Part shown: one piece after another, positions 30,004 to 37,478 of the stretch
Layout of the letters: every line of letters starts with the position of its first letter
How positions within the stretch are numbered: position 1 is the stretch's first letter
Source: an uncultured Gammaproteobacteria bacterium
GTDB taxonomy: Bacteria > Pseudomonadota > Gammaproteobacteria > JACCXJ01
Reading direction: 5' to 3'
NCBI GenBank assembly: GCA_963764725.1
Contig: CAVXTM010000011.1
Location: 96,001 to 160,000 of the forward strand
DNA length: 64,000 bases
The notes under the pieces: generated by a model
Seen by the model: the letters and a program-made list of their open reading frames with translations, nothing else
The model's database searches: none
What the model was told of the DNA's origin: nothing
Position numbers and translations under genes: made by a program

Positions 30004-30079
30004 TCCCCGGTAGCTCAGTCGGTAGAGCGGGTGACTGTTAATCACTAGGTCGGCGGTTCGAGCCCGTCCCGGGGAGCCA
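30004..30079 (+). tRNA. tRNA-Asn(GTT)
   Basis: 76 nt; acceptor stem TCCCCGG/CCGGGGA, D-arm TAGCTCAGTCGGTAGAGC, anticodon GTT at 30037-39, GTTCGAG T-loop, encoded CCA. Confidence 0.98.
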
Positions 30080-30254
30080 CGAAAACCCCGCATTAAATCC
30101 CCGCTGTAGCGCTCCATCCTTTGTGACTTTTTTCACTGATTTATGCCTAGGATTCGGTATACTAGCCCAGCGCTGCCATTCGTCATGTCTCGTCAGTGCA
30201 GTTTGCAGCCCCTCGAAACGCTTCCGTACAAGTTCGATTTTATCTTGAACCCTC

Positions 30255-30409
30255 CTATCCTGCATCTTCGATGCGGATGGGATGTCGCGTTCGGACCGTA
30301 CGGAAAGCAACCTGCAGTTCGTCGATCTGTTCGACCGACAAACGGCTCCCTTTGCGGCGGCGAGATTCGCGGTTGCACCGGGGATATAAGCACGACGGTA
30401 TTCGGTCAC
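30255..30409 (-). pseudogene. 5' remnant of a REP-associated tyrosine transposase (RAYT)
   Basis: MTEYRRAYIPGAT, then in another frame RRKGSRLSVEQIDELQVAFRTVRTRHPIRIE; truncated before the HUH motif; degenerate REP (ATAGGATGCGGTGGACCGAAGGGAACC) upstream at about 30444-30475. Confidence 0.75.
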
Positions 30410-30738: not shown

Positions 30739-31365
30739 ATGAAACGCTTGATTACGGTTGTACTGGTCACCTTTCTGGCCGCGGGTTGCGCCACCCAGAG
30801 TCAACAGGCGCGTACTGAGGGCACTGCCGCGGGAGCGGGCATTGGCGCGCTCATCGGCGCGGGTCTCGGCGCCGCGTTTGACGGCGCGCGGGGCGCGGCA
30901 ATAGGAGCGGGGGTCGGGGCCCTCCTCGGCAGCATTGCCGGCTATTCGTATGCCGATAACATTGCTAAACGCCGATCCGACCTCGCGGGAAAAGAAAACG
31001 ATCTCGACGCGCGCGTCGCCTTTGCCCATGGTGTCAATGGGGACACTCAAAAATTCAATGAGCAGCTCGCGAGCGAAATCAACGACTCGGCAGCCAAGGT
31101 CAATACGTTGGCGGCTCAATACAAGAACCAAGAGGTTACGCAACAGCAACTGGTAGCGGAGCGCCAGAATATGAGCAACAAAGTCCAAAATGCTGAAAAC
31201 CAGTTTAACCTCGCCAAGGAACAGCTAGACGATCTCAAGGGGTTTCGCTCGAAGCAGACAGGTCCCTCGGATGCCTTGGATATCGAAATCACGCAGCTGG
31301 AAGGCCAACTGGCCCAGTTGAAGACGAATACCTCGACGCTAGCGTCCTTGAGCCAGCGCATATAG
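30739..31365 (+). CDS. glycine-zipper lipoprotein with long C-terminal coiled coil
   Basis: Lipobox LAAGC; GAGIGALIGAGLG...GAAIGAGVGALLG; heptad-rich tail. Confidence 0.8.
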   Translation: MKRLITVVLVTFLAAGCATQSQQARTEGTAAGAGIGALIGAGLGAAFDGARGAAIGAGVGALLGSIAGYSYADNIAKRRSDLAGKENDLDARVAFAHGVNGDTQKFNEQLASEINDSAAKVNTLAAQYKNQEVTQQQLVAERQNMSNKVQNAENQFNLAKEQLDDLKGFRSKQTGPSDALDIEITQLEGQLAQLKTNTSTLASLSQRI

Positions 31366-31397
31366 ATAGCCACTAGCCGCAGTCACAGTCTGGAGGA

Positions 31398-31853
31398 ATG
31401 TATAGTATGTGGGCGCGATTATGCTTATCTGTCGTCGTTCTCGGGTCGATGGGCGGGTGTGAACAAAGCGCCCTAGTGCAACTTAGCCGCGAGACGGAGG
31501 AGGCGGAGCAGCGCGTCCTGGTTAAACAGCAGCATCTCTCGGGCTTGGAAGAGCAGAACCGGGCGCTTGTGGAGGAGAAAAATCGGCTGTTGCGGGAGCT
31601 TGAAACTCAGCAGGTGAGCTTACGCGACCTCGGCTCCCGCCTCGCGGCTTTGCGGAAGGAAAATGCCGGTATGGCTGCTCACACCGAGCGGGAGCGTCAG
31701 AACCGGGCCCATACGGACGCGGCGCTACGAAAATATCAACAACAAGTGAGCACGCTGACCACCCACGATCAGTTATCCCCTGACGCTAAACGCAAAAGCA
31801 TCGACGCGTTGAAGAACGAAATTAAGACTTATTTAGAACTGGGCCTGCGTTAA
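31398..31853 (+). CDS. coiled-coil lipoprotein
   Basis: GGAGG RBS; signal ending MGGC; E/Q/R/L-rich heptads. Confidence 0.7.
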   Translation: MYSMWARLCLSVVVLGSMGGCEQSALVQLSRETEEAEQRVLVKQQHLSGLEEQNRALVEEKNRLLRELETQQVSLRDLGSRLAALRKENAGMAAHTERERQNRAHTDAALRKYQQQVSTLTTHDQLSPDAKRKSIDALKNEIKTYLELGLR

Positions 31854-31957
31854 TGCGATGTGCCAGTGCGCTTCAGAAGGCGCCTCTCTTTGCTGGGCAG
31901 GCGCTTCTTGGACGAGGTAGCAGCGCCGCGTCTTTCTCTGTATCTGGGAGGTATGTC

Positions 31958-33142
31958 ATGAGAGATTCCGATTCCCGCAAACACCGTGGCATTGTGCTTA
32001 CTTGTTTTTCTGCTTTAGCATTCTCGTTCTCCGCTATCAGTGGGTGCAGGTCTCACGATACTACACAGAGAGCCAGTCACGGTTTCCGCCTCACCGACAA
32101 GGAATTGCTAGTTTACATCGAGGCCGTGACAAGAATTCGGGAGACAGCCGCGCTCCTACCTCCTAGAGGAACCACAGCCCAGATCGTCGGGGATACACTG
32201 AACGCGTATCTGGCGCAAAAAGACGCGTCTTCCGGCTATCTCACCCGTGAGGAGTACCGTGACTTTCAGCGTCTGCAGGATGACAGGTACGTCGGCATCG
32301 GTATGGATATCGAGAAGGATGCCGAAGGCAACGTTCTTTGCCTTCCCGTCATGGAGAGTGTCGCGGCAAAGGCCGGTATCCACGCGCGTGATCGCCTCAA
32401 GAGCATCGAGGGTGTCCCGGTTGCGGGAAAATCGCTACTCGCGCTCGGCTCCCTCGCTAGGGGTGCGCCGGGAGCCCGGTTAGCGTTAGTCATTGTCACT
32501 CCCGCCGGAATCGAAAAGCAGGTGATCCTGACGCGGGCGATGACGAGCGTCGAGACGGTATCCCAACGCAACTTCGGTTCGATCCCGGTAATTCGGATCC
32601 ACACTTTTACCCGCGGGACGAAGGGCAAGCTCGCGGCGCTTGTCACAGACTGGGCAACAGATCGGCCCGCTGTCCTCGATCTGCGCGGTAATCGGGGTGG
32701 TGATCTCCATGCCGCTATTGACTCCGCGCAGCTCTTCTTGCCCGCGGGGACGCGCATTGTTTCCGTAACGGGCCGTGGCACGAAACACTATCAAAGTGAC
32801 AACGCTCCGCTGAATATGGAAACTCCCATCTATCTTTGGCAGGATGAGGCCACGGCCAGCGCGGCAGAGGTCTTCATTGCAGCGCTAACGCAGAATCGCC
32901 GGGCCGTATCGATCGGAAAACAAACATTCGGCAAAGGAACCAAGCAAGACATCCTCGAGTTGAGCGATGGATCGGCGCTGGTCTTGACCACGGGGCACCT
33001 GGCGACCCCCGATGGCACCCGCTACGATGGACAGGGGATCTCCCCGACGCATGCTCTGCTCGAGGAGGTTTCCGACACCGGGCACTATCTCGAACGCGTA
33101 GGATCATTGATGTACTCGGAGCGCTACCCCGCTACAAGATGA
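31958..33142 (+). CDS. S41 family C-terminal processing peptidase (PDZ plus Ser/Lys dyad), probable lipoprotein
   Basis: YVGIG PDZ loop, LDLRGNRGG, TASAAE and GKQTFGKG; GGAGG RBS; ISGC lipobox. Confidence 0.88.
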   Translation: MRDSDSRKHRGIVLTCFSALAFSFSAISGCRSHDTTQRASHGFRLTDKELLVYIEAVTRIRETAALLPPRGTTAQIVGDTLNAYLAQKDASSGYLTREEYRDFQRLQDDRYVGIGMDIEKDAEGNVLCLPVMESVAAKAGIHARDRLKSIEGVPVAGKSLLALGSLARGAPGARLALVIVTPAGIEKQVILTRAMTSVETVSQRNFGSIPVIRIHTFTRGTKGKLAALVTDWATDRPAVLDLRGNRGGDLHAAIDSAQLFLPAGTRIVSVTGRGTKHYQSDNAPLNMETPIYLWQDEATASAAEVFIAALTQNRRAVSIGKQTFGKGTKQDILELSDGSALVLTTGHLATPDGTRYDGQGISPTHALLEEVSDTGHYLERVGSLMYSERYPATR

Positions 33143-33209
33143 AACCCCGCAACGACAATGCCGGTTTGTGGCACAGCGGATTTTATCCCCATGGCCACGG
33201 GGGTGAGCT

Positions 33210-34364
33210 ATGAGAAAGATTTTTGTCAACTATCGCAGAGAACCCGATCAGTATGTGGCGGGAAATCTAAGCCGCGAGCTGCGCCGCTACTTCGGCGACT
33301 CGCAAGTATTCCGCGACAAGGAAAGCATCGAGGGAGGTGTGTCGTGGAAGCAGCACGTGCTGGACGAGATCGACTGCGATTCGGTGCTGCTGGTGCTGAT
33401 TGGACAAAAGTGGGGCGATGTGCGCGACGCGGGCGGAAACCGGCGACTCGACAAGCCGGACGATCCAGTACGCCTTGAGATCGCCCATGCGATGCGCAAC
33501 GGTGCAGCGATCATTCCGCTGCTGCTGGAAAACGCGCAGATGCCGCCCGCTTCCAAGCTCCCGCAAGAGTTGATCCAGCTCGCCGAACTCAACGCGCTCA
33601 AGCTACGCGACGGCGATTGGGAAGCCGATGGCGCAAAAATCGTGCAGCGGCTGGAAAAACTCGGAGCAAAGCGAGTCGCCGGCGCAGATTCTCAGCCGGG
33701 GAACGTGGACGGTAAAACTAAGGAGCCGGACAAACGTTATCAGAGTTGCGCTGAGTTCTTAGCCGACCTTGATGCGTCTCAGGCGGAAGTCTCCGGCGCT
33801 CAGAGCATCCGCCCGCGATACGTGATTGCAGCAGCTGTGGCGGGCCTCATGATAGCCGTCGGGGCTGAGATTTATTTCAGCAAGGCCGTTCGCTTCGTTG
33901 TGGACGAGGAGGCAATGCTACAGAAGGAGCATGAGACCGGTTTCATTCTGATCCAGGGTGCGGCGGAAAAAGCATCTCTTGCTTGCCGAGGGCTCCGGGA
34001 AATCGATATCAAGCGACAGAATCTCGAAATTGCCAAGGGACTCGGCGATACAGGACTCGTGGATGCATATACCACCCAAATCGAGGAGATCGCCCAAAAC
34101 ATCCGCGACCACGCTTCAGAATATAAGGATCTGATCGGTAGAATCGTCGGCATTAAAAAGGCGGTCGCAGAGGCCGAATTTGAGCATTATGCGAATGAAC
34201 TACTGAGCAAAAAGTCATTCAATCAAGTCCACGTGAGCCGGTTGGTACAGCGTCATTATCAGGACCATCTCGACGGCGCTAGCGCGGAGCACGTAGGGCT
34301 AACCCGCCAAACCTGTATGGGGGATATGAAGGAATACGCATTTAAACCTTCGCTTGGGCGGTGA
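33210..34364 (+). CDS. TIR-domain protein with a single TM helix and helical C-terminal domain
   Basis: KIFVNYRRE...VFRD..SIEGG..W...VLIGQKW...DPVRLEI...IIPLL (TIR_2, catalytic-position Glu present); TM YVIAAAVAGLMIAVGAEIYF. Confidence 0.85.
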   Translation: MRKIFVNYRREPDQYVAGNLSRELRRYFGDSQVFRDKESIEGGVSWKQHVLDEIDCDSVLLVLIGQKWGDVRDAGGNRRLDKPDDPVRLEIAHAMRNGAAIIPLLLENAQMPPASKLPQELIQLAELNALKLRDGDWEADGAKIVQRLEKLGAKRVAGADSQPGNVDGKTKEPDKRYQSCAEFLADLDASQAEVSGAQSIRPRYVIAAAVAGLMIAVGAEIYFSKAVRFVVDEEAMLQKEHETGFILIQGAAEKASLACRGLREIDIKRQNLEIAKGLGDTGLVDAYTTQIEEIAQNIRDHASEYKDLIGRIVGIKKAVAEAEFEHYANELLSKKSFNQVHVSRLVQRHYQDHLDGASAEHVGLTRQTCMGDMKEYAFKPSLGR

Positions 34365-36927
34365 GACTCGCGATGTCCCGCAAAATACGCGGTGTTTTGG
34401 GTCCGCCGGGGAAAGCCAGGTATTTGGGACGCCACACGGGCCCGAGTTGTTCCGCGAAACGCCGGTAGCTTTCATGGTCACGAAAGTGCTCGCTTTGACG
34501 ATAAATCATGTTCCCGATCCGCTGCCAAAGCGGAGCGAGCGCATGGCGTTGCAATCCCGCGACCGGCACCATCCCGAGATTGAACCAGCGATAGGCTCGT
34601 GTTTGGCCGCCCAGCATGAGCTCCGTCACCATGAATTCCATGATGCCCGCGGTGGCATCGGGCCGGTAGCGCGCTAGATCCAGGGCTAGTTCTTCCTTGC
34701 GGGCACTCACCCACAAAATCGCAAACGCTACGATACGCTTATCCTTGCGCACCACGGCGCAGGGGAAGTTGGCAACGTAAGTAGGATCGAAATAGCCCCT
34801 GGAAAAGCTCTTCTCCGAGGTCTTCGTGTGCGCCAGCCATTCCTCGGAGACGCGCTGCATGTCCGGGATCAACGCGGGCACCTTGGCCGAACTGACTATC
34901 TCGAAGCTGACGCCCTCTGCAAGCACGTGGTCGTAAGCTTTGCGGAGCGCCGCTCTTTCGGCTCCCTGGAGCGAAAAGCGCTCTAACGGGATGCGGGCGT
35001 CATCGCCCAATTTGAGCACCGATAGGCCGAGATCGATATAGCGCGACAAGCCTTCGGCATCGATGAGATAAAAAACCGGCCATCCACCATAGCGATCGCA
35101 GAGATCCCGAAACGTCCAGAGCAGGCTCTCGTGCTCAGCCGGCGGACCGACGGGATCACCGAGCGCGACCCAGCTTTTATGCATCACCCGGTACATGATG
35201 AAGGCATGACCAGAATGGCTGAACAGAAAGCGCTTGTCGCCGAGCAAGGCGAGGCTCGCCCGCGCATTCGGGTCCTGCTTGACGATGCGGCGGATCTGCT
35301 GGAGGCTCGCCGTATGCGGCAGGTCGGGGACTGGATCGGCCCGCAGTAGATACGCCAACGCTATCGCGCCGGCAAGGACAACCGCCACCGCTAGGGTGCG
35401 GAGACATCTGGAAAGCTCGCCGTCATATTGGAACTGCCACCAGAGCTCGTGGGAATAGGCGAATTGCTTATACGAAAAGATGCCGAGCCAGATGGTCACG
35501 GCGAGGATCGCCATCACGGTGGAGACCCACTCCGCCGGAAAACCCTGATCGAGTGCCGAGCCTCCGCGTTGGAACTCTCGATGCGTCGCCAATAGCACCA
35601 GGAGCGTGAGGGCGAGAACGAACGCGCCTTCATAGATCAAGCCTTTGATCAGAAAGGCTACGATCCCCAGCGCGAGCAGAGCGGCGATCAAACGATAGGC
35701 CGTGCTGAGACGGAGCGACAAGCCGCGCGCAAGGATTACGAGCCCCATCCCGGCAGCGCCCGCGAGCGCGTGGAAAACCTCCACCAGCGGTAGCGGCGCC
35801 GCCTCCCTTAGCAAGCCGAGGCGTCCCGCCGGCGCCGGAACGGCGCTCGAGAAAAGCAGCATCATCCCGGCGAAGATGATGACTACGGCCATGATTTGCG
35901 GTCCGAGCACTTCAAGCCAATCCGTCGCAGACTCCCGCGCCCGCACCCACTGGGCGCGTTGCGCGACCGCTTCATGAGCGGCGAGCACGATGGCGGCGAC
36001 GCCGAGGGGCGCCAGATAATAGACGCAACGGAACAACAAGATCGCGCCGAGCAGCGCCGCGGGAGGGATCTCCGGTAGACCGACCAGCATCACCGACTCG
36101 AAGACACCGATGCCCCCCGGCACGTGACTCACACCCCCTGCCAGCAAGGCCAGTGCGAATACGCCCAAAAAACCGAAGAAGTCCGTTCCTGGGTATACCG
36201 GCAGCAGCACGTAGACTACGGCGCCGATCAGCATAAGATCCAAAGCGCCGAGGGCGATTTGCGCCGAGGCCGTTTTGGCCGACGGCAGCCGTAGCGACCA
36301 GTTCCGCGTCCGGATCGTCATCGGCCGTACGGCGGAAACGATGAGATACACCACCATCAGGCCCAGCATCACCGCGCCTAAGGTGTGCTTCACTTCGGGA
36401 GGCAGGGAAAATGCCGTGGCTTCTGCGCTCCCAAACAGCAGTGAGAGCGTTAGGATAAAACCGATCCCCAAGCTTACGGTCAGCGCGCACATGGTCGTGA
36501 TCCCGGCGATCTCGACCGCGGTTAAACCGCCTCGAGAATAGAGGCGGTAGCGGATGGCGCCGCCGGTGACCATCGCGAAACCGAGATTGCTGCCGAAAGC
36601 AGAAGCGAGGAAGCCCGCAAGCGCGGCGCGCGAATAGGACAAGGGACGGTTGATGTGCTTTAGGGCAACTACATCATAGCCCGTCACCACCACATAACTG
36701 GCGGCCGTAATTCCGAGCGCCAGTAATACTGATGTCCAGGGTAGCGCATGAACGTTTTCCAGGACCTCGGCCAGCTCGATCTTTTTTAGCGTGCGGTAAA
36801 CGACCCAGAGCGCGACACACACGATAGCGAGACTGATAAGAGTACCGGCTTGCACCAACAGTTTTTTGGCGAACGGCCCGGCCCGGCTGGGGCTTTTACG
36901 CTTTGCTGCGTTGCTCGCAATCGCCAT
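34342..36927 (-). CDS. mprF: bifunctional aminoacyl-phosphatidylglycerol flippase/synthase
   Basis: N-terminal multi-TM with GGAIRYRLY and HVPGGIGVFE; C-terminal GDK...ALGDPVG...EKSFSRG...FNLGM. Confidence 0.92.
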   Translation of the reverse strand: MAIASNAAKRKSPSRAGPFAKKLLVQAGTLISLAIVCVALWVVYRTLKKIELAEVLENVHALPWTSVLLALGITAASYVVVTGYDVVALKHINRPLSYSRAALAGFLASAFGSNLGFAMVTGGAIRYRLYSRGGLTAVEIAGITTMCALTVSLGIGFILTLSLLFGSAEATAFSLPPEVKHTLGAVMLGLMVVYLIVSAVRPMTIRTRNWSLRLPSAKTASAQIALGALDLMLIGAVVYVLLPVYPGTDFFGFLGVFALALLAGGVSHVPGGIGVFESVMLVGLPEIPPAALLGAILLFRCVYYLAPLGVAAIVLAAHEAVAQRAQWVRARESATDWLEVLGPQIMAVVIIFAGMMLLFSSAVPAPAGRLGLLREAAPLPLVEVFHALAGAAGMGLVILARGLSLRLSTAYRLIAALLALGIVAFLIKGLIYEGAFVLALTLLVLLATHREFQRGGSALDQGFPAEWVSTVMAILAVTIWLGIFSYKQFAYSHELWWQFQYDGELSRCLRTLAVAVVLAGAIALAYLLRADPVPDLPHTASLQQIRRIVKQDPNARASLALLGDKRFLFSHSGHAFIMYRVMHKSWVALGDPVGPPAEHESLLWTFRDLCDRYGGWPVFYLIDAEGLSRYIDLGLSVLKLGDDARIPLERFSLQGAERAALRKAYDHVLAEGVSFEIVSSAKVPALIPDMQRVSEEWLAHTKTSEKSFSRGYFDPTYVANFPCAVVRKDKRIVAFAILWVSARKEELALDLARYRPDATAGIMEFMVTELMLGGQTRAYRWFNLGMVPVAGLQRHALAPLWQRIGNMIYRQSEHFRDHESYRRFAEQLGPVWRPKYLAFPGGPKTPRILRDIASLTAQAKV

Positions 36928-37094: not shown

Positions 37095-37478
37095 ATGGGC
37101 CTGGGCCTGCCCGCCGCCCTCGGCTGGTTCTTTCTTGGGGCGTGGTTCATGGCGCTGCAATACACCGATTACCCCATGGCTAACCACGGAATCGACTTCC
37201 CCGCACAGCGGCGGCTTCTAGGACACCGGCGGTGGCTTGCCCTGGGCTTTGGCACCGTCGTCATGGTCTTGACCCTCATCCCAGTGGTCAATTTCCTGGC
37301 AATGCCCATTGCCGTCGCGGGCGCCACAGCGATGTGGGTCGGGGCGATCATTGTCAGGCCGCGAGGAAGCGCTTCCGCGCTGCCAGGAGGCGACAATCCT
37401 TTAACCGGGGCATTATGGATCGAGCGCTCTTCGAAGCGCAGTAGCGACACATTGATAAGCGCCGACTGCAGGTGCTAG
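37095..37478 (+). pseudogene. cysZ: 3' fragment of sulfate transporter CysZ (EI24 domain)
   Basis: GAWFMALQYTDYPMANH...LGFG...LIPVVNFLAMPIAVAGAT; N-terminal ~160 aa missing. Confidence 0.7.

Follow-up and report, generated by a model that had tools for sequence, protein, structure and literature searches.

A TIR domain in place of a receptor kinase: a TagQ-like envelope gene module with an apparently exchanged output in an uncultured gammaproteobacterium

The DNA considered here is a window of 64,000 nucleotides (nt) from an uncultured soil gammaproteobacterium (contig CAVXTM010000011.1 of assembly GCA_963764725.1, forward-strand positions 96,001 to 160,000), whose genome, hereafter G000, is 97% complete; "the window" always means this whole stretch. 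Between a tRNA-Asn gene and the convergent gene mprF lie four intact open reading frames (ORFs), all on the plus strand and here called g1 to g4 (Table 1), with 32 nt between g1 and g2, a 1-nt overlap of g2 with g3, and 67 nt between g3 and g4. The first-pass annotation, made from the letters of the window alone, had described a module of four closely spaced, co-oriented genes that ends in a 23-bp overlap with mprF, and this layout was borne out, including the 23-nt overlap of the g4 and mprF 3′ ends. It had also placed a remnant of a RAYT transposase next to the tRNA gene, which did not survive inspection: the ORF in question (30038-30409, minus strand) overlaps tRNA-Asn and has no Pfam match at E ≤ 0.01. 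Only the first dozen or so residues of that ORF recall a Y1 transposase. Scans of the locus for promoters and terminators gave results at chance level only. The larger revision concerns the TIR domain of g4, which had been read as an original part of the module and which is instead a recent replacement of a Hanks-type kinase on the same receptor.

Table 1. Coordinates of the module, its parts and its borders in the window, with the other TIR proteins of G000 (contig coordinates, outside the window)
Feature	Position	Strand	Evidence or remark
tRNA-Asn (GTT)	30004..30079	+	ARAGORN; upstream edge of locus variable within genus
g1, TagQ-like glycine-zipper lipoprotein, 208 aa	30739..31365	+	Pfam PF13441, E 1e-7
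g2, coiled-coil lipoprotein, 151 aa	31398..31853	+	Coiled coil, lipobox
g3, S41 lipoprotein protease, 429 aa as called	31853..33142	+	Pfam Peptidase_S41
g4, TIR-transmembrane-helical domain protein, 384 aa	33210..34364	+	TIR_2
Acquired cassette: ribosome-binding region, start codon (33210), TIR (g4 aa 1-165)	33188..33713	+	Homology break
Codon of Glu90, catalytic position of TIR	33477-33479	+	SARM1 alignment
VDG codons at cassette 3′ end, already kinase-derived	33705-33713	+	
Kinase C-lobe tail remnant KTKEPDKRYQSCAEFLADLDASQAE	33714..33790	+	Comparison with intact kinases
Transmembrane helix, g4 aa 205-223	33822..33878	+	Hydropathy scan; helix in AlphaFold2 model
Helical domain, predicted periplasmic, g4 aa ~232-370	33903..34319	+	Common to sister-genome kinases
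Codon of C259	33984-33986	+	Conserved Cys of g4 helical domain
Codon of C369	34314-34316	+	Conserved Cys of g4 helical domain
14-aa C-terminal extension and stop, specific to G000 allele	34320..34364	+	Overlaps mprF 3′ end
mprF (lysyl-phosphatidylglycerol synthase)	34342..36927	-	Pfam; conserved right-hand border, outside module
Other G000 TIR protein	C11:384845-385912		
Other G000 TIR protein	C18:74985-76013		
Other G000 TIR protein	C9:39260-40813		
Other G000 TIR protein	C15:359636-361087		

The three lipobox-type signals named in the first reading are all present, each with its own qualification. That of g1 is canonical (LAAGC, Cys17) and is followed by a glycine zipper (residues 28-69) and a coiled coil of about 130 residues; the match to Gly-zipper_YMGG exceeds the Pfam cut-off, and the NCBIfam model YiaD_Gzip matches the N-terminal part only. 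In g2 the lipobox is SMGGC (Cys21), with a Met at -3 that is atypical, yet kept in the three orthologues found among the 41 related genomes searched for close orthologues of g1 to g4 (G001, G005 and G008 only). Apart from its coiled coil g2 has no recognizable domain, with no Pfam family above cut-off. The lipobox of g3 (AISGC, Cys65), kept in all 5 copies read, makes sense only from an internal start, and the true start of g3 is therefore probably Met36 (31958). The protein matches Peptidase_S41 (PF03572) at E 1e-33 and PDZ_6 at 25.5 bits, just below the 27-bit cut-off, and its nearest solved structure is the Pseudomonas aeruginosa protease CtpA (PDB 7rpq/8sxe; E 4.7e-32, residues 84-399). 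TASAAE of g3 lies opposite SASAAE of CtpA, and FGKG opposite FGKG, motifs which we take to be the sites of the catalytic Ser and Lys. In G001 (L012 5480-5800) and G005 (L013 4140-4460), the upstream part of the S41 gene is shifted out of frame with the lipobox and the mature protein at a T-run, over the stretch that holds the start at Met36 and the signal-peptide n-region (window 31853-32050), which would be either an assembly error or a different start.

The fourth protein was correctly read from the outset as a TIR_2 domain with a Glu in VRLEI, one transmembrane helix, and a helical C-terminal domain. TIR_2 covers residues 4-140 (E 3.4e-8; 34.4 bits against a cut-off of 28). The best sequence match of this domain in the PDB is the TIR of SARM1, with a weak E value (0.07) and an alignment that runs end to end, in which E90, the Glu of VRLEI, stands opposite the Glu of the SARM1 "HKE" (E642 counted from G601, the residue mutated in 7cm7 and named in its title). 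All 41 TIR heads in the alignment have Glu at the E90 position, and the other 11 invariant columns are intact in g4. With the AlphaFold2 model of the domain (predicted local distance difference test [pLDDT] 88), Foldseek retrieved SARM1 first (E 2e-8, TM-score 0.80-0.86 on the target), followed by SPARTA and Cat1. The TIR domains of SARM1, SPARTA, and Cat1 all cleave NAD+. Judged by sequence and model, the g4 TIR is of the SARM1-like, catalytic (NAD+-hydrolase) type, and g4 as a whole is predicted to be a single-pass receptor of the inner membrane, its N-terminal domain in the cytoplasm and its helical domain in the periplasm.

TIR-TIR assembly is the classic function of TIR domains, as when animal Toll-like receptors recruit their adaptors. 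From this perspective, the g4 TIR would be a non-enzymatic assembly domain that, once clustered, recruits another TIR protein or some other partner, and G000 does encode four more TIR-X proteins (Table 1), 36-41% identical to g4 in the TIR part. The invariance of the Glu at the catalytic position throughout the family argues against this possibility, as does the fact that the nearest folds are all NAD+-cleaving TIRs, and we regard it as very improbable. The four other proteins comprise a TIR-transmembrane-ectodomain, a TIR with a low-complexity tail, a TIR with a polytopic membrane domain, and a TIR-FGE-sulfatase; the same genome encodes over 10 kinases of the Hanks type and has 5 proteins with an FGE-sulfatase domain.

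The history of g4 emerges from comparison with its relatives. Among the 41 genomes, G008 has a full-length syntenic match to g4 (82% identity), and in G001, G005, and G003 only residues 169-374 match, at 78-82% identity (80-83% over residues 171-370). In G001 and G005 the syntenic gene is an intact Hanks Ser/Thr kinase of 454 residues, complete with Gly-rich loop, HRDVKPSN and DFG, which continues into a transmembrane helix and a C-terminal domain as in g4; the G003 copy ends at a contig end. The surroundings are shared, with g1 to g3 upstream of the receptor gene in G001, G005, and G008 (86-92% identity) and mprF downstream in G001, G003, and G008. Protein databases add four more kinase alleles (P0002, P0004, P0005, and P0006; 74-85% identity) and a second allele with a TIR, P0003, encoded at locus L022, where g1 to g3 again lie upstream. 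Kinase alleles are 451-454 residues long and end 1-2 residues past the second conserved Cys, and the C-terminal tail of the receptor differs between TIR and kinase alleles. The g4 allele of G000 type is unique, a cluster of 1 in a collection of 5.8 billion proteins. The DNA-level junctions and the synteny are based on G001 (L012), G005 (L013), and G008 (L011), which are unpublished genomes, as are G308 (L041), used for one neighborhood, and G002, G007, and G009, used for mprF flanks. The central claims are supported as well by data that carry no such flag, namely G003, P0002-P0007, P0080, and L022-L029, and the neighborhoods of G015, G035, G088, G112, G191, G207, G228, G250, G287, and G327.

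At the DNA level, homology between the window and the kinase loci ends 21-45 nt past the g3 stop codon (33163-33187) and restarts at 33720. The 5′ junction of the swap lies about 20 nt upstream of the g4 start codon, and the 3′ junction falls at VDG, which are codons 91-93 of the kinase. What follows VDG differs between the TIR alleles. In the G000 type there is an in-frame jump to the tail of the kinase (KTKEPDKRYQSCAEFLADL), with about 160 kinase codons deleted and about 25 residues left; the stretch corresponding to the remnant KTKEPDKRYQSCAEFLADLDASQAE reads KEPDKRFQNCGEFLASID in intact kinases. In the type shared by G008 and L022, VDG is followed by 62 nt from the middle of the kinase (QALDTMISTRGSLPENE) and then by an in-frame jump to the juxtamembrane motif YQ.QA. 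Both deletions preserve the reading frame. By their sequences, neither form is derivable from the other, and both descend from a fusion in which the TIR was joined to kinase codon 91 and all that follows. Such an intermediate is on record in P0080, which is encoded on an ENA contig of 61.9 kb and consists of the C-terminal half of the TIR, NVDGQALD, and the remainder of the kinase domain, where NFG stands for DFG; the first 47 residues of this ORF are TIR read out of frame. A 628-nt contig from sequencing run X1 likewise spans the TIR part to 33713 and continues with 238 nt of kinase sequence. Since the same junction is found in several independent assemblies, it is not an assembly artifact. 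Among the sequencing runs, none of RNA is listed for the locus and all shares are ≤0.18; no contig among those listed bridges the G000-type junction. Because the TIR alleles contain kinase fragments, the kinase must have come first, and descent of the kinase alleles from TIR alleles is very unlikely. By sequence, g4 is a chimera: about 530 nt with a ribosome-binding site and the SARM1-like TIR head have replaced the 5′ part of a kinase gene by recombination, and the dead remainder of the kinase was afterwards lost through the two different deletions.

The tree of the receptor part is compatible with one acquisition of the TIR as well as with several. An age for the cassette was also considered and dropped: a lower synonymous divergence (dS) than in the receptor part had suggested that the TIR cassette was younger than its surroundings, but the dS of the TIR (0.07-0.15) is not different from that of g1 to g3 (Fisher p 0.08-0.48). 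It is the receptor part (33720-34319) that stands out, with a dS of 0.32-0.39 between TIR alleles, about twice that of g1 to g3 and the TIR (30739-33713; 0.07-0.27), and the juxtamembrane stretch of G000 is closer to the kinase allele P0006 than to the other TIR alleles. The high dS of the receptor part may reflect allelic recombination.

The source of the TIR head can be named as a family. The head of g4 (residues 1-165, 33210-33704) shares 92% identity with P0008 and 62-92% with dozens of proteins that are 211-672 residues long (P0008-P0074), in which "...GADSQPG" is followed by a DUF4190-type membrane segment and then by unrelated C-terminal regions. When 12 members were compared, head identity lay between 62 and 93% for each of the 66 pairs, whereas the tails sorted into six groups that could not be aligned with one another. 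This marks the donor as a membrane TIR protein family that keeps its head and varies its tail, and g4 is one more graft of that head. The TIR-DUF4190 family looks like a diversifying repertoire of receptors. No member of it was found in G000.

On the other side of the junction, the receptor domain forms what appears from sequence searches to be an unnamed family of its own and a general input module. Its AlphaFold2 model (pLDDT 87, core 96-98) consists of a long helical hairpin and two shorter helices. There was no Pfam match, a PDB profile search gave nothing under E 0.001, the best Foldseek E value was 0.17, with no solved structure alike beyond generic hairpins, and a Protein Atlas search returned no usable match; VIA-align gave Z ≤ 8.4 to generic helical hairpins (ESCRT-III, the arms of seryl-tRNA synthetase), values that are not meaningful for helical models. 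A HMMER search of 1.8 billion representatives collected 49 clusters at E ≤ 1e-3, and of the 29 longer ones, 16 match Pkinase, 3 TIR_2, 1 nSTAND1, and 1 caspase in Pfam, with 9 matching nothing. The three remote TIR_2 fusions (P0105 with TIR alone, P0094 with EAD9 as well, and P0101 with a full kinase) carry TIRs of different subfamilies, at 24-35% identity, and thus arose independently. A transmembrane helix is predicted between the N-terminal and receptor domains in 23 of 25 proteins, the other two having an N-terminal hydrophobic segment only. Two Cys columns are conserved, C70 being invariant and C180 nearly so in alignment A5, and C70 nearly invariant and C180 present in most rows in A6; the corresponding pair in g4, C259 and C369, fits a periplasmic disulfide. 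Of 400 genomes of the class, 1 had the domain, which is G000 itself; scans of the whole collection gave 2 loci in genome contigs and 8 in metagenome contigs, 3 of the latter being remote and on contigs of about 1-1.3 kb and the others belonging to the same genus. Those three (L027-L029) are 34-42% identical: in L027 (3-932) and L028 (3-1031) the kinase-receptor gene precedes a small paralogue made up of a transmembrane helix and the receptor domain, and in L029 (8-1046) it precedes a Zn-ribbon/FHA gene.

Do the four genes belong together? In the 41 relatives, g1, g2, g3, and the C-terminal domain of g4 share an identical pattern of presence (G000, G001, G005, and G008 only), and all other S41 matches are at most 36% identical to g3. 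A wider survey was made with a profile of g1 against 400 genomes of the class, in which 144 had a match, mostly to the glycine zipper only. Restricting this to matches of at least ~160 of the 212 model positions left 11 genomes besides G000, and ~7 kb on each side were read. A g2-like lipoprotein directly follows the g1 relative in 10 of 10 assessable loci (the eleventh is at a contig end), and a periplasmic protease comes next in 5 of the 10, an S41 protease in G035, G228, G207, and G327 and a pair of TPR and TPR-trypsin proteins in G015. The gene immediately upstream of the g1 relative encodes a membrane kinase in 4 of 11 (G112, G207, G327, and G287, where the kinase also bears an FGE-sulfatase domain); a further 4 (G035, G088, G228, and G191) have an FGE-sulfatase protein there, preceded in the first three by FtsX and ABC genes; in G250 it is a TPR-CHAT protein, and in G015 it is TerD, with a caspase-FGE-sulfatase gene two genes off. 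Kinase, g1, g2, and S41 occur together in 2 of 11, G207 and G327. The g2-like genes of these loci (L036-L046) share an N-terminal motif that precedes the coiled coil, Cys-x(2-5)-DPxxGG(F/L)(F/L)GG-x-G-x(3)-G-x-Y; the proteins match no Pfam or NCBIfam family, and the motif is absent from g2 of G000, which is by position the equivalent of this "DPxxGGFFGG + coiled coil" lipoprotein downstream of g1 relatives. The cluster of G287 (L046 1618-12385) is a large Ser/Thr signaling cluster, with two PP2C phosphatases, trypsin-FHA, VWA-FHA, and FHA proteins, and the kinase-transmembrane-FGE-sulfatase gene, continuing through g1-like and g2-like genes and a kinase-polytopic-FHA gene to an ISL3 transposase.

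As read from these gene neighborhoods, an association of g1, g2, and a protease with membrane signaling proteins recurs in Gammaproteobacteria. The expectation that all four families would co-occur is thereby borne out in part: the first three recur beside signaling proteins, but the fourth partner is elsewhere a kinase, an FGE-sulfatase, or a CHAT protein and not a TIR, because the TIR has recently replaced a kinase here. Searches for homology of the g4 receptor domain with the C-termini of the kinases beside g1 relatives did not show any (hmmsearch E 0.087 with Z = 1000; hhalign 12.9%).

The composition of these neighborhoods points to a known circuit, since FGE-sulfatase, FtsX, and ABC genes beside an outer-membrane lipoprotein and a Hanks kinase are the make-up of TagR, TagS, TagT, TagQ, and PpkA. 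The g1 family aligns with true TagQs in hhalign at 97.3% probability (E 2.7e-11, 128 columns), and g1 is on this basis a remote relative of TagQ; true TagQs (G390, G386) score 290-508 bits with the TagQ model, and the g1 relative of G228 scores 26.6 bits (E 3.4e-6). Membrane damage was described in 2026 to induce a 2:2 complex of TagQ and TagR, which is proposed to bind the periplasmic domains of two PpkA molecules and so to trigger autophosphorylation (PMC13713981). We consider it probable that the module of the window is an envelope-perturbation sensor of the TagQ/PpkA type whose output has been changed from phosphorylation to NAD+ cleavage. Damage or stress at the outer membrane would change the state of the lipoproteins, which would then engage the periplasmic domain of the receptor and gather receptor molecules. 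In the sister genomes, this gathering would trigger autophosphorylation of the kinase; in G000, the gathered TIR domains would switch on NAD+ cleavage, and NAD+ depletion or a TIR-made nucleotide signal would lead to growth arrest or death of the damaged cell. The S41 protease would probably set or reset the signal, with either a lipoprotein or the receptor's exposed C-terminal tail as the target of cleavage. The first-pass annotation had proposed a trans-envelope sensor and effector, and the module supports that much; it had not named the TagQ/TagR/PpkA relative, and the TIR that it set at the center is secondary.

A number of points weigh against this reading. The shared gene order of close orthologues is weak evidence by itself, the genomes being kin, and the kinases of the wider survey have C-termini that are different from, or not detectably related to, the receptor domain of g4. 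The hhalign match of g1 to TagQ leans partly on the Gly-rich zipper, and the TagQ model itself (NF041250, cut-off 300 bits) has no match to g1 at E ≤ 1 in G000. There is no TagR, TagS, or TagT between tRNA-Asn and mprF in G000, nor does the genome have a sheath gene (VipB/TssC) of a type VI secretion system (T6SS), and for these reasons the module is a relative of TagQRST-PpkA in design and not a member. The tree of the receptor part (10 rows) has no supported branches, and only 7% of its bootstrap replicates unite the TIR alleles. Two of the 3 full TIR alleles have lost the native stop codon, P0080 and L026 are frameshifted, and the locus is degraded in L023 and L024. More generally, the bioinformatic evidence for the exchange of kinase for TIR is strong, and the mechanism is inferential: NADase activity, topology, trigger, and all contacts are inferred.

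The lost stops and frameshifts would be expected if the TIR chimera were a non-functional by-product of illegitimate recombination in an unstable locus, a receptor gene about to be lost, with only g1 to g3, or nothing, still at work. This would also suit the truncation of the kinase and loss of g1 to g3 in L023/L024, the failure to find the module in 4 of the genus's 9 genomes, and the uniqueness of the G000-type allele. Yet the reading frame has stayed open over 368-488 codons in three diverged TIR alleles, and the ratio of nonsynonymous to synonymous divergence in the TIR part (0.19-0.34) is no higher than in g1 to g3 (0.21-0.36). Moreover, two independent deletions are both in frame, all 12 invariant TIR columns, E90 included, are intact in g4, and the frameshifts, which occur in metagenome contigs of low coverage, may be errors of sequencing or assembly. 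A dead chimera is on balance quite improbable. Where the native stop is lost, the receptor gene reads through into the 3′ end of mprF in antisense, by 14 residues in G000 and by about 117 in L022/P0003 (L022:4033-4393), and in L024 (1-2370) the truncated kinase lies beside Uma2-like and WYL-like ORFs (named by eye).

An alternative reading, toward which the first-pass annotation leaned, is anti-phage defense. Here the module would be a dedicated abortive-infection system, in which the lipoproteins and protease sense phage adsorption or genome injection at the envelope and the TIR kills the cell by depleting NAD+; it differs from the envelope-sensor reading only in the trigger and the defense role. 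In its favor, the closest folds to the TIR head are NADase TIRs (SARM1, SPARTA, and Cat1), and other proteins join the receptor domain to nSTAND1, EAD9-TIR, or caspase, a kind of domain set described for conflict systems (PMC7159879, PMC8195603). The module also lies in a variable region beside a tRNA gene, and in G006 this site is occupied by toxin-antitoxin genes. However, the ancestral and commonest output is a kinase and not a killing domain, and the flanks of the locus (MFS transporter, mprF, and peroxiredoxin) are housekeeping genes and not a defense island. The module also escapes recognition as a named defense system, as the first reading had surmised: PADLOC 2.0 gave no match to the four proteins better than E 0.001, the best being a coiled-coil match to LmuB (E 0.0012), with none for g3. 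For Thoeris, the ThsB-type models were far under their cut-offs (PADLOC ThsB1, E 0.0037 and 14.4 bits; NCBIfam ThcB4, 22 bits against a cut-off of 220), and ThsA was not searched for. We consider a dedicated defense system unlikely.

Within the genus, both the module site and the site between the module and mprF vary. G008 (L011 4496-5943) has an insertion with a duplicated 23-codon tail of mprF and a helix-turn-helix (HigA-like) gene; G006 (L031 3174-4634) has an AbrB-type/toxin pair and keeps ~85 nt of the 3′ end of g4; and G007 (L032 2499-2996) has an unrelated membrane protein at the site. Farther to the right in the window, an ORF of 127 residues (37095-37478, plus strand) matches only positions 138-199 of the 199 in the CysZ/EI24 profile and is either a truncated gene or a mis-called start.

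Nature has supplied a before-and-after pair here: the same receptor, the same partners, and the same site, the strains differing in whether the receptor carries a kinase or a TIR. Such a pair makes testable both what periplasmic TagQ-type lipoprotein sensors detect and whether induced proximity at the membrane suffices to fire a bacterial TIR NADase. The envelope-sensor reading would also widen the "membrane damage" idea of TagQ/PpkA beyond T6SS control, to genomes without a T6SS, and add an S41 protease and a second lipoprotein to the circuit. The receptor domain is in addition a new type of periplasmic input, which has come to be joined to outputs as different as kinase, TIR, STAND, and caspase. 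A broader picture is possible, though we offer it tentatively and with more doubt than confidence: bacterial proteins in the style of Toll-like receptors might report envelope danger as NAD+ cleavage, the TIR head being a mobile cassette that can be grafted onto a receptor-kinase chassis, by which a single sensing apparatus could be rewired from reversible phosphorylation to a suicide or alarm signal, and the TIR-DUF4190 proteins, with at least six ectodomains, a diversifying repertoire of surface receptors.

How the module relates to known systems can be set out feature by feature. With TagQRST-PpkA of the P. aeruginosa H1-T6SS, it shares an outer-membrane-type lipoprotein that combines a glycine zipper with a helical region (g1); the ancestral g4 is, like PpkA, a single-pass Hanks kinase, PpkA being activated through its periplasmic domain; and FGE-sulfatase, FtsX, and ABC genes, as in TagR/S/T, adjoin g1 relatives in G035, G088, and G228. 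Unlike that system, G000 has the extra coiled-coil lipoprotein and the S41 protease, and unlike PpkA, g4 has a periplasmic domain of a different family and a TIR, not a kinase, as output. Carboxy-terminal processing proteases can cut single-pass membrane regulators in the periplasm. As in LbcA-CtpA of P. aeruginosa and NlpI-Prc of Escherichia coli, the g3 protease is encoded with lipoproteins, but g3 appears to be a lipoprotein itself and its partners are coiled coils, not TPR proteins. Prc and CtpA have been linked to cell-surface signaling (bioRxiv 10.1101/2023.03.13.532344), and proteases of this class to signal transduction.

Kaur, Burroughs, Iyer, and Aravind have described conflict systems with interchangeable effector domains (PMC7159879, PMC8195603), and the partners of the receptor domain (S/T kinase, TIR, EAD9-TIR, nSTAND1, and caspase) are of the kind listed in the passages searched; those passages mention no receptor domain of this family and no g1-g2-protease cassette, and "S41" turns up in them solely as part of DOIs. 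In the wider literature, with subscription journals and supplements outside the scope, we found no membrane-anchored bacterial TIR receptors of the g4 kind and no TagQ-like/S41 cassette. With SARM1, the SPARTA TIR-APAZ protein, and Cat1, g4 shares the TIR fold and the Glu at the catalytic position; unlike these and the Thoeris TIRs, which are soluble and respond to cytoplasmic triggers (nucleic acid, nucleotides, or nicotinamide mononucleotide), the g4 TIR is predicted to be tethered to the membrane under a sensor. Induced proximity is a general rule of activation for NAD+-cleaving TIR enzymes. TIR-STING, another bacterial TIR effector, was not matched by the fold search.

The architecture of the animal Toll-like and interleukin-1 receptors invites comparison with that of receptor kinases. 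Unlike in those receptors, the TIR of g4 is N-terminal and appears to be of the enzymatic SARM1 type, and its ectodomain is unrelated; the resemblance is an analogy and implies no common descent. As in them, an extracytoplasmic sensor is joined, in the predicted topology, through one transmembrane helix to a cytoplasmic TIR; the kinase and TIR versions of the g4 receptor have the same ectodomain.

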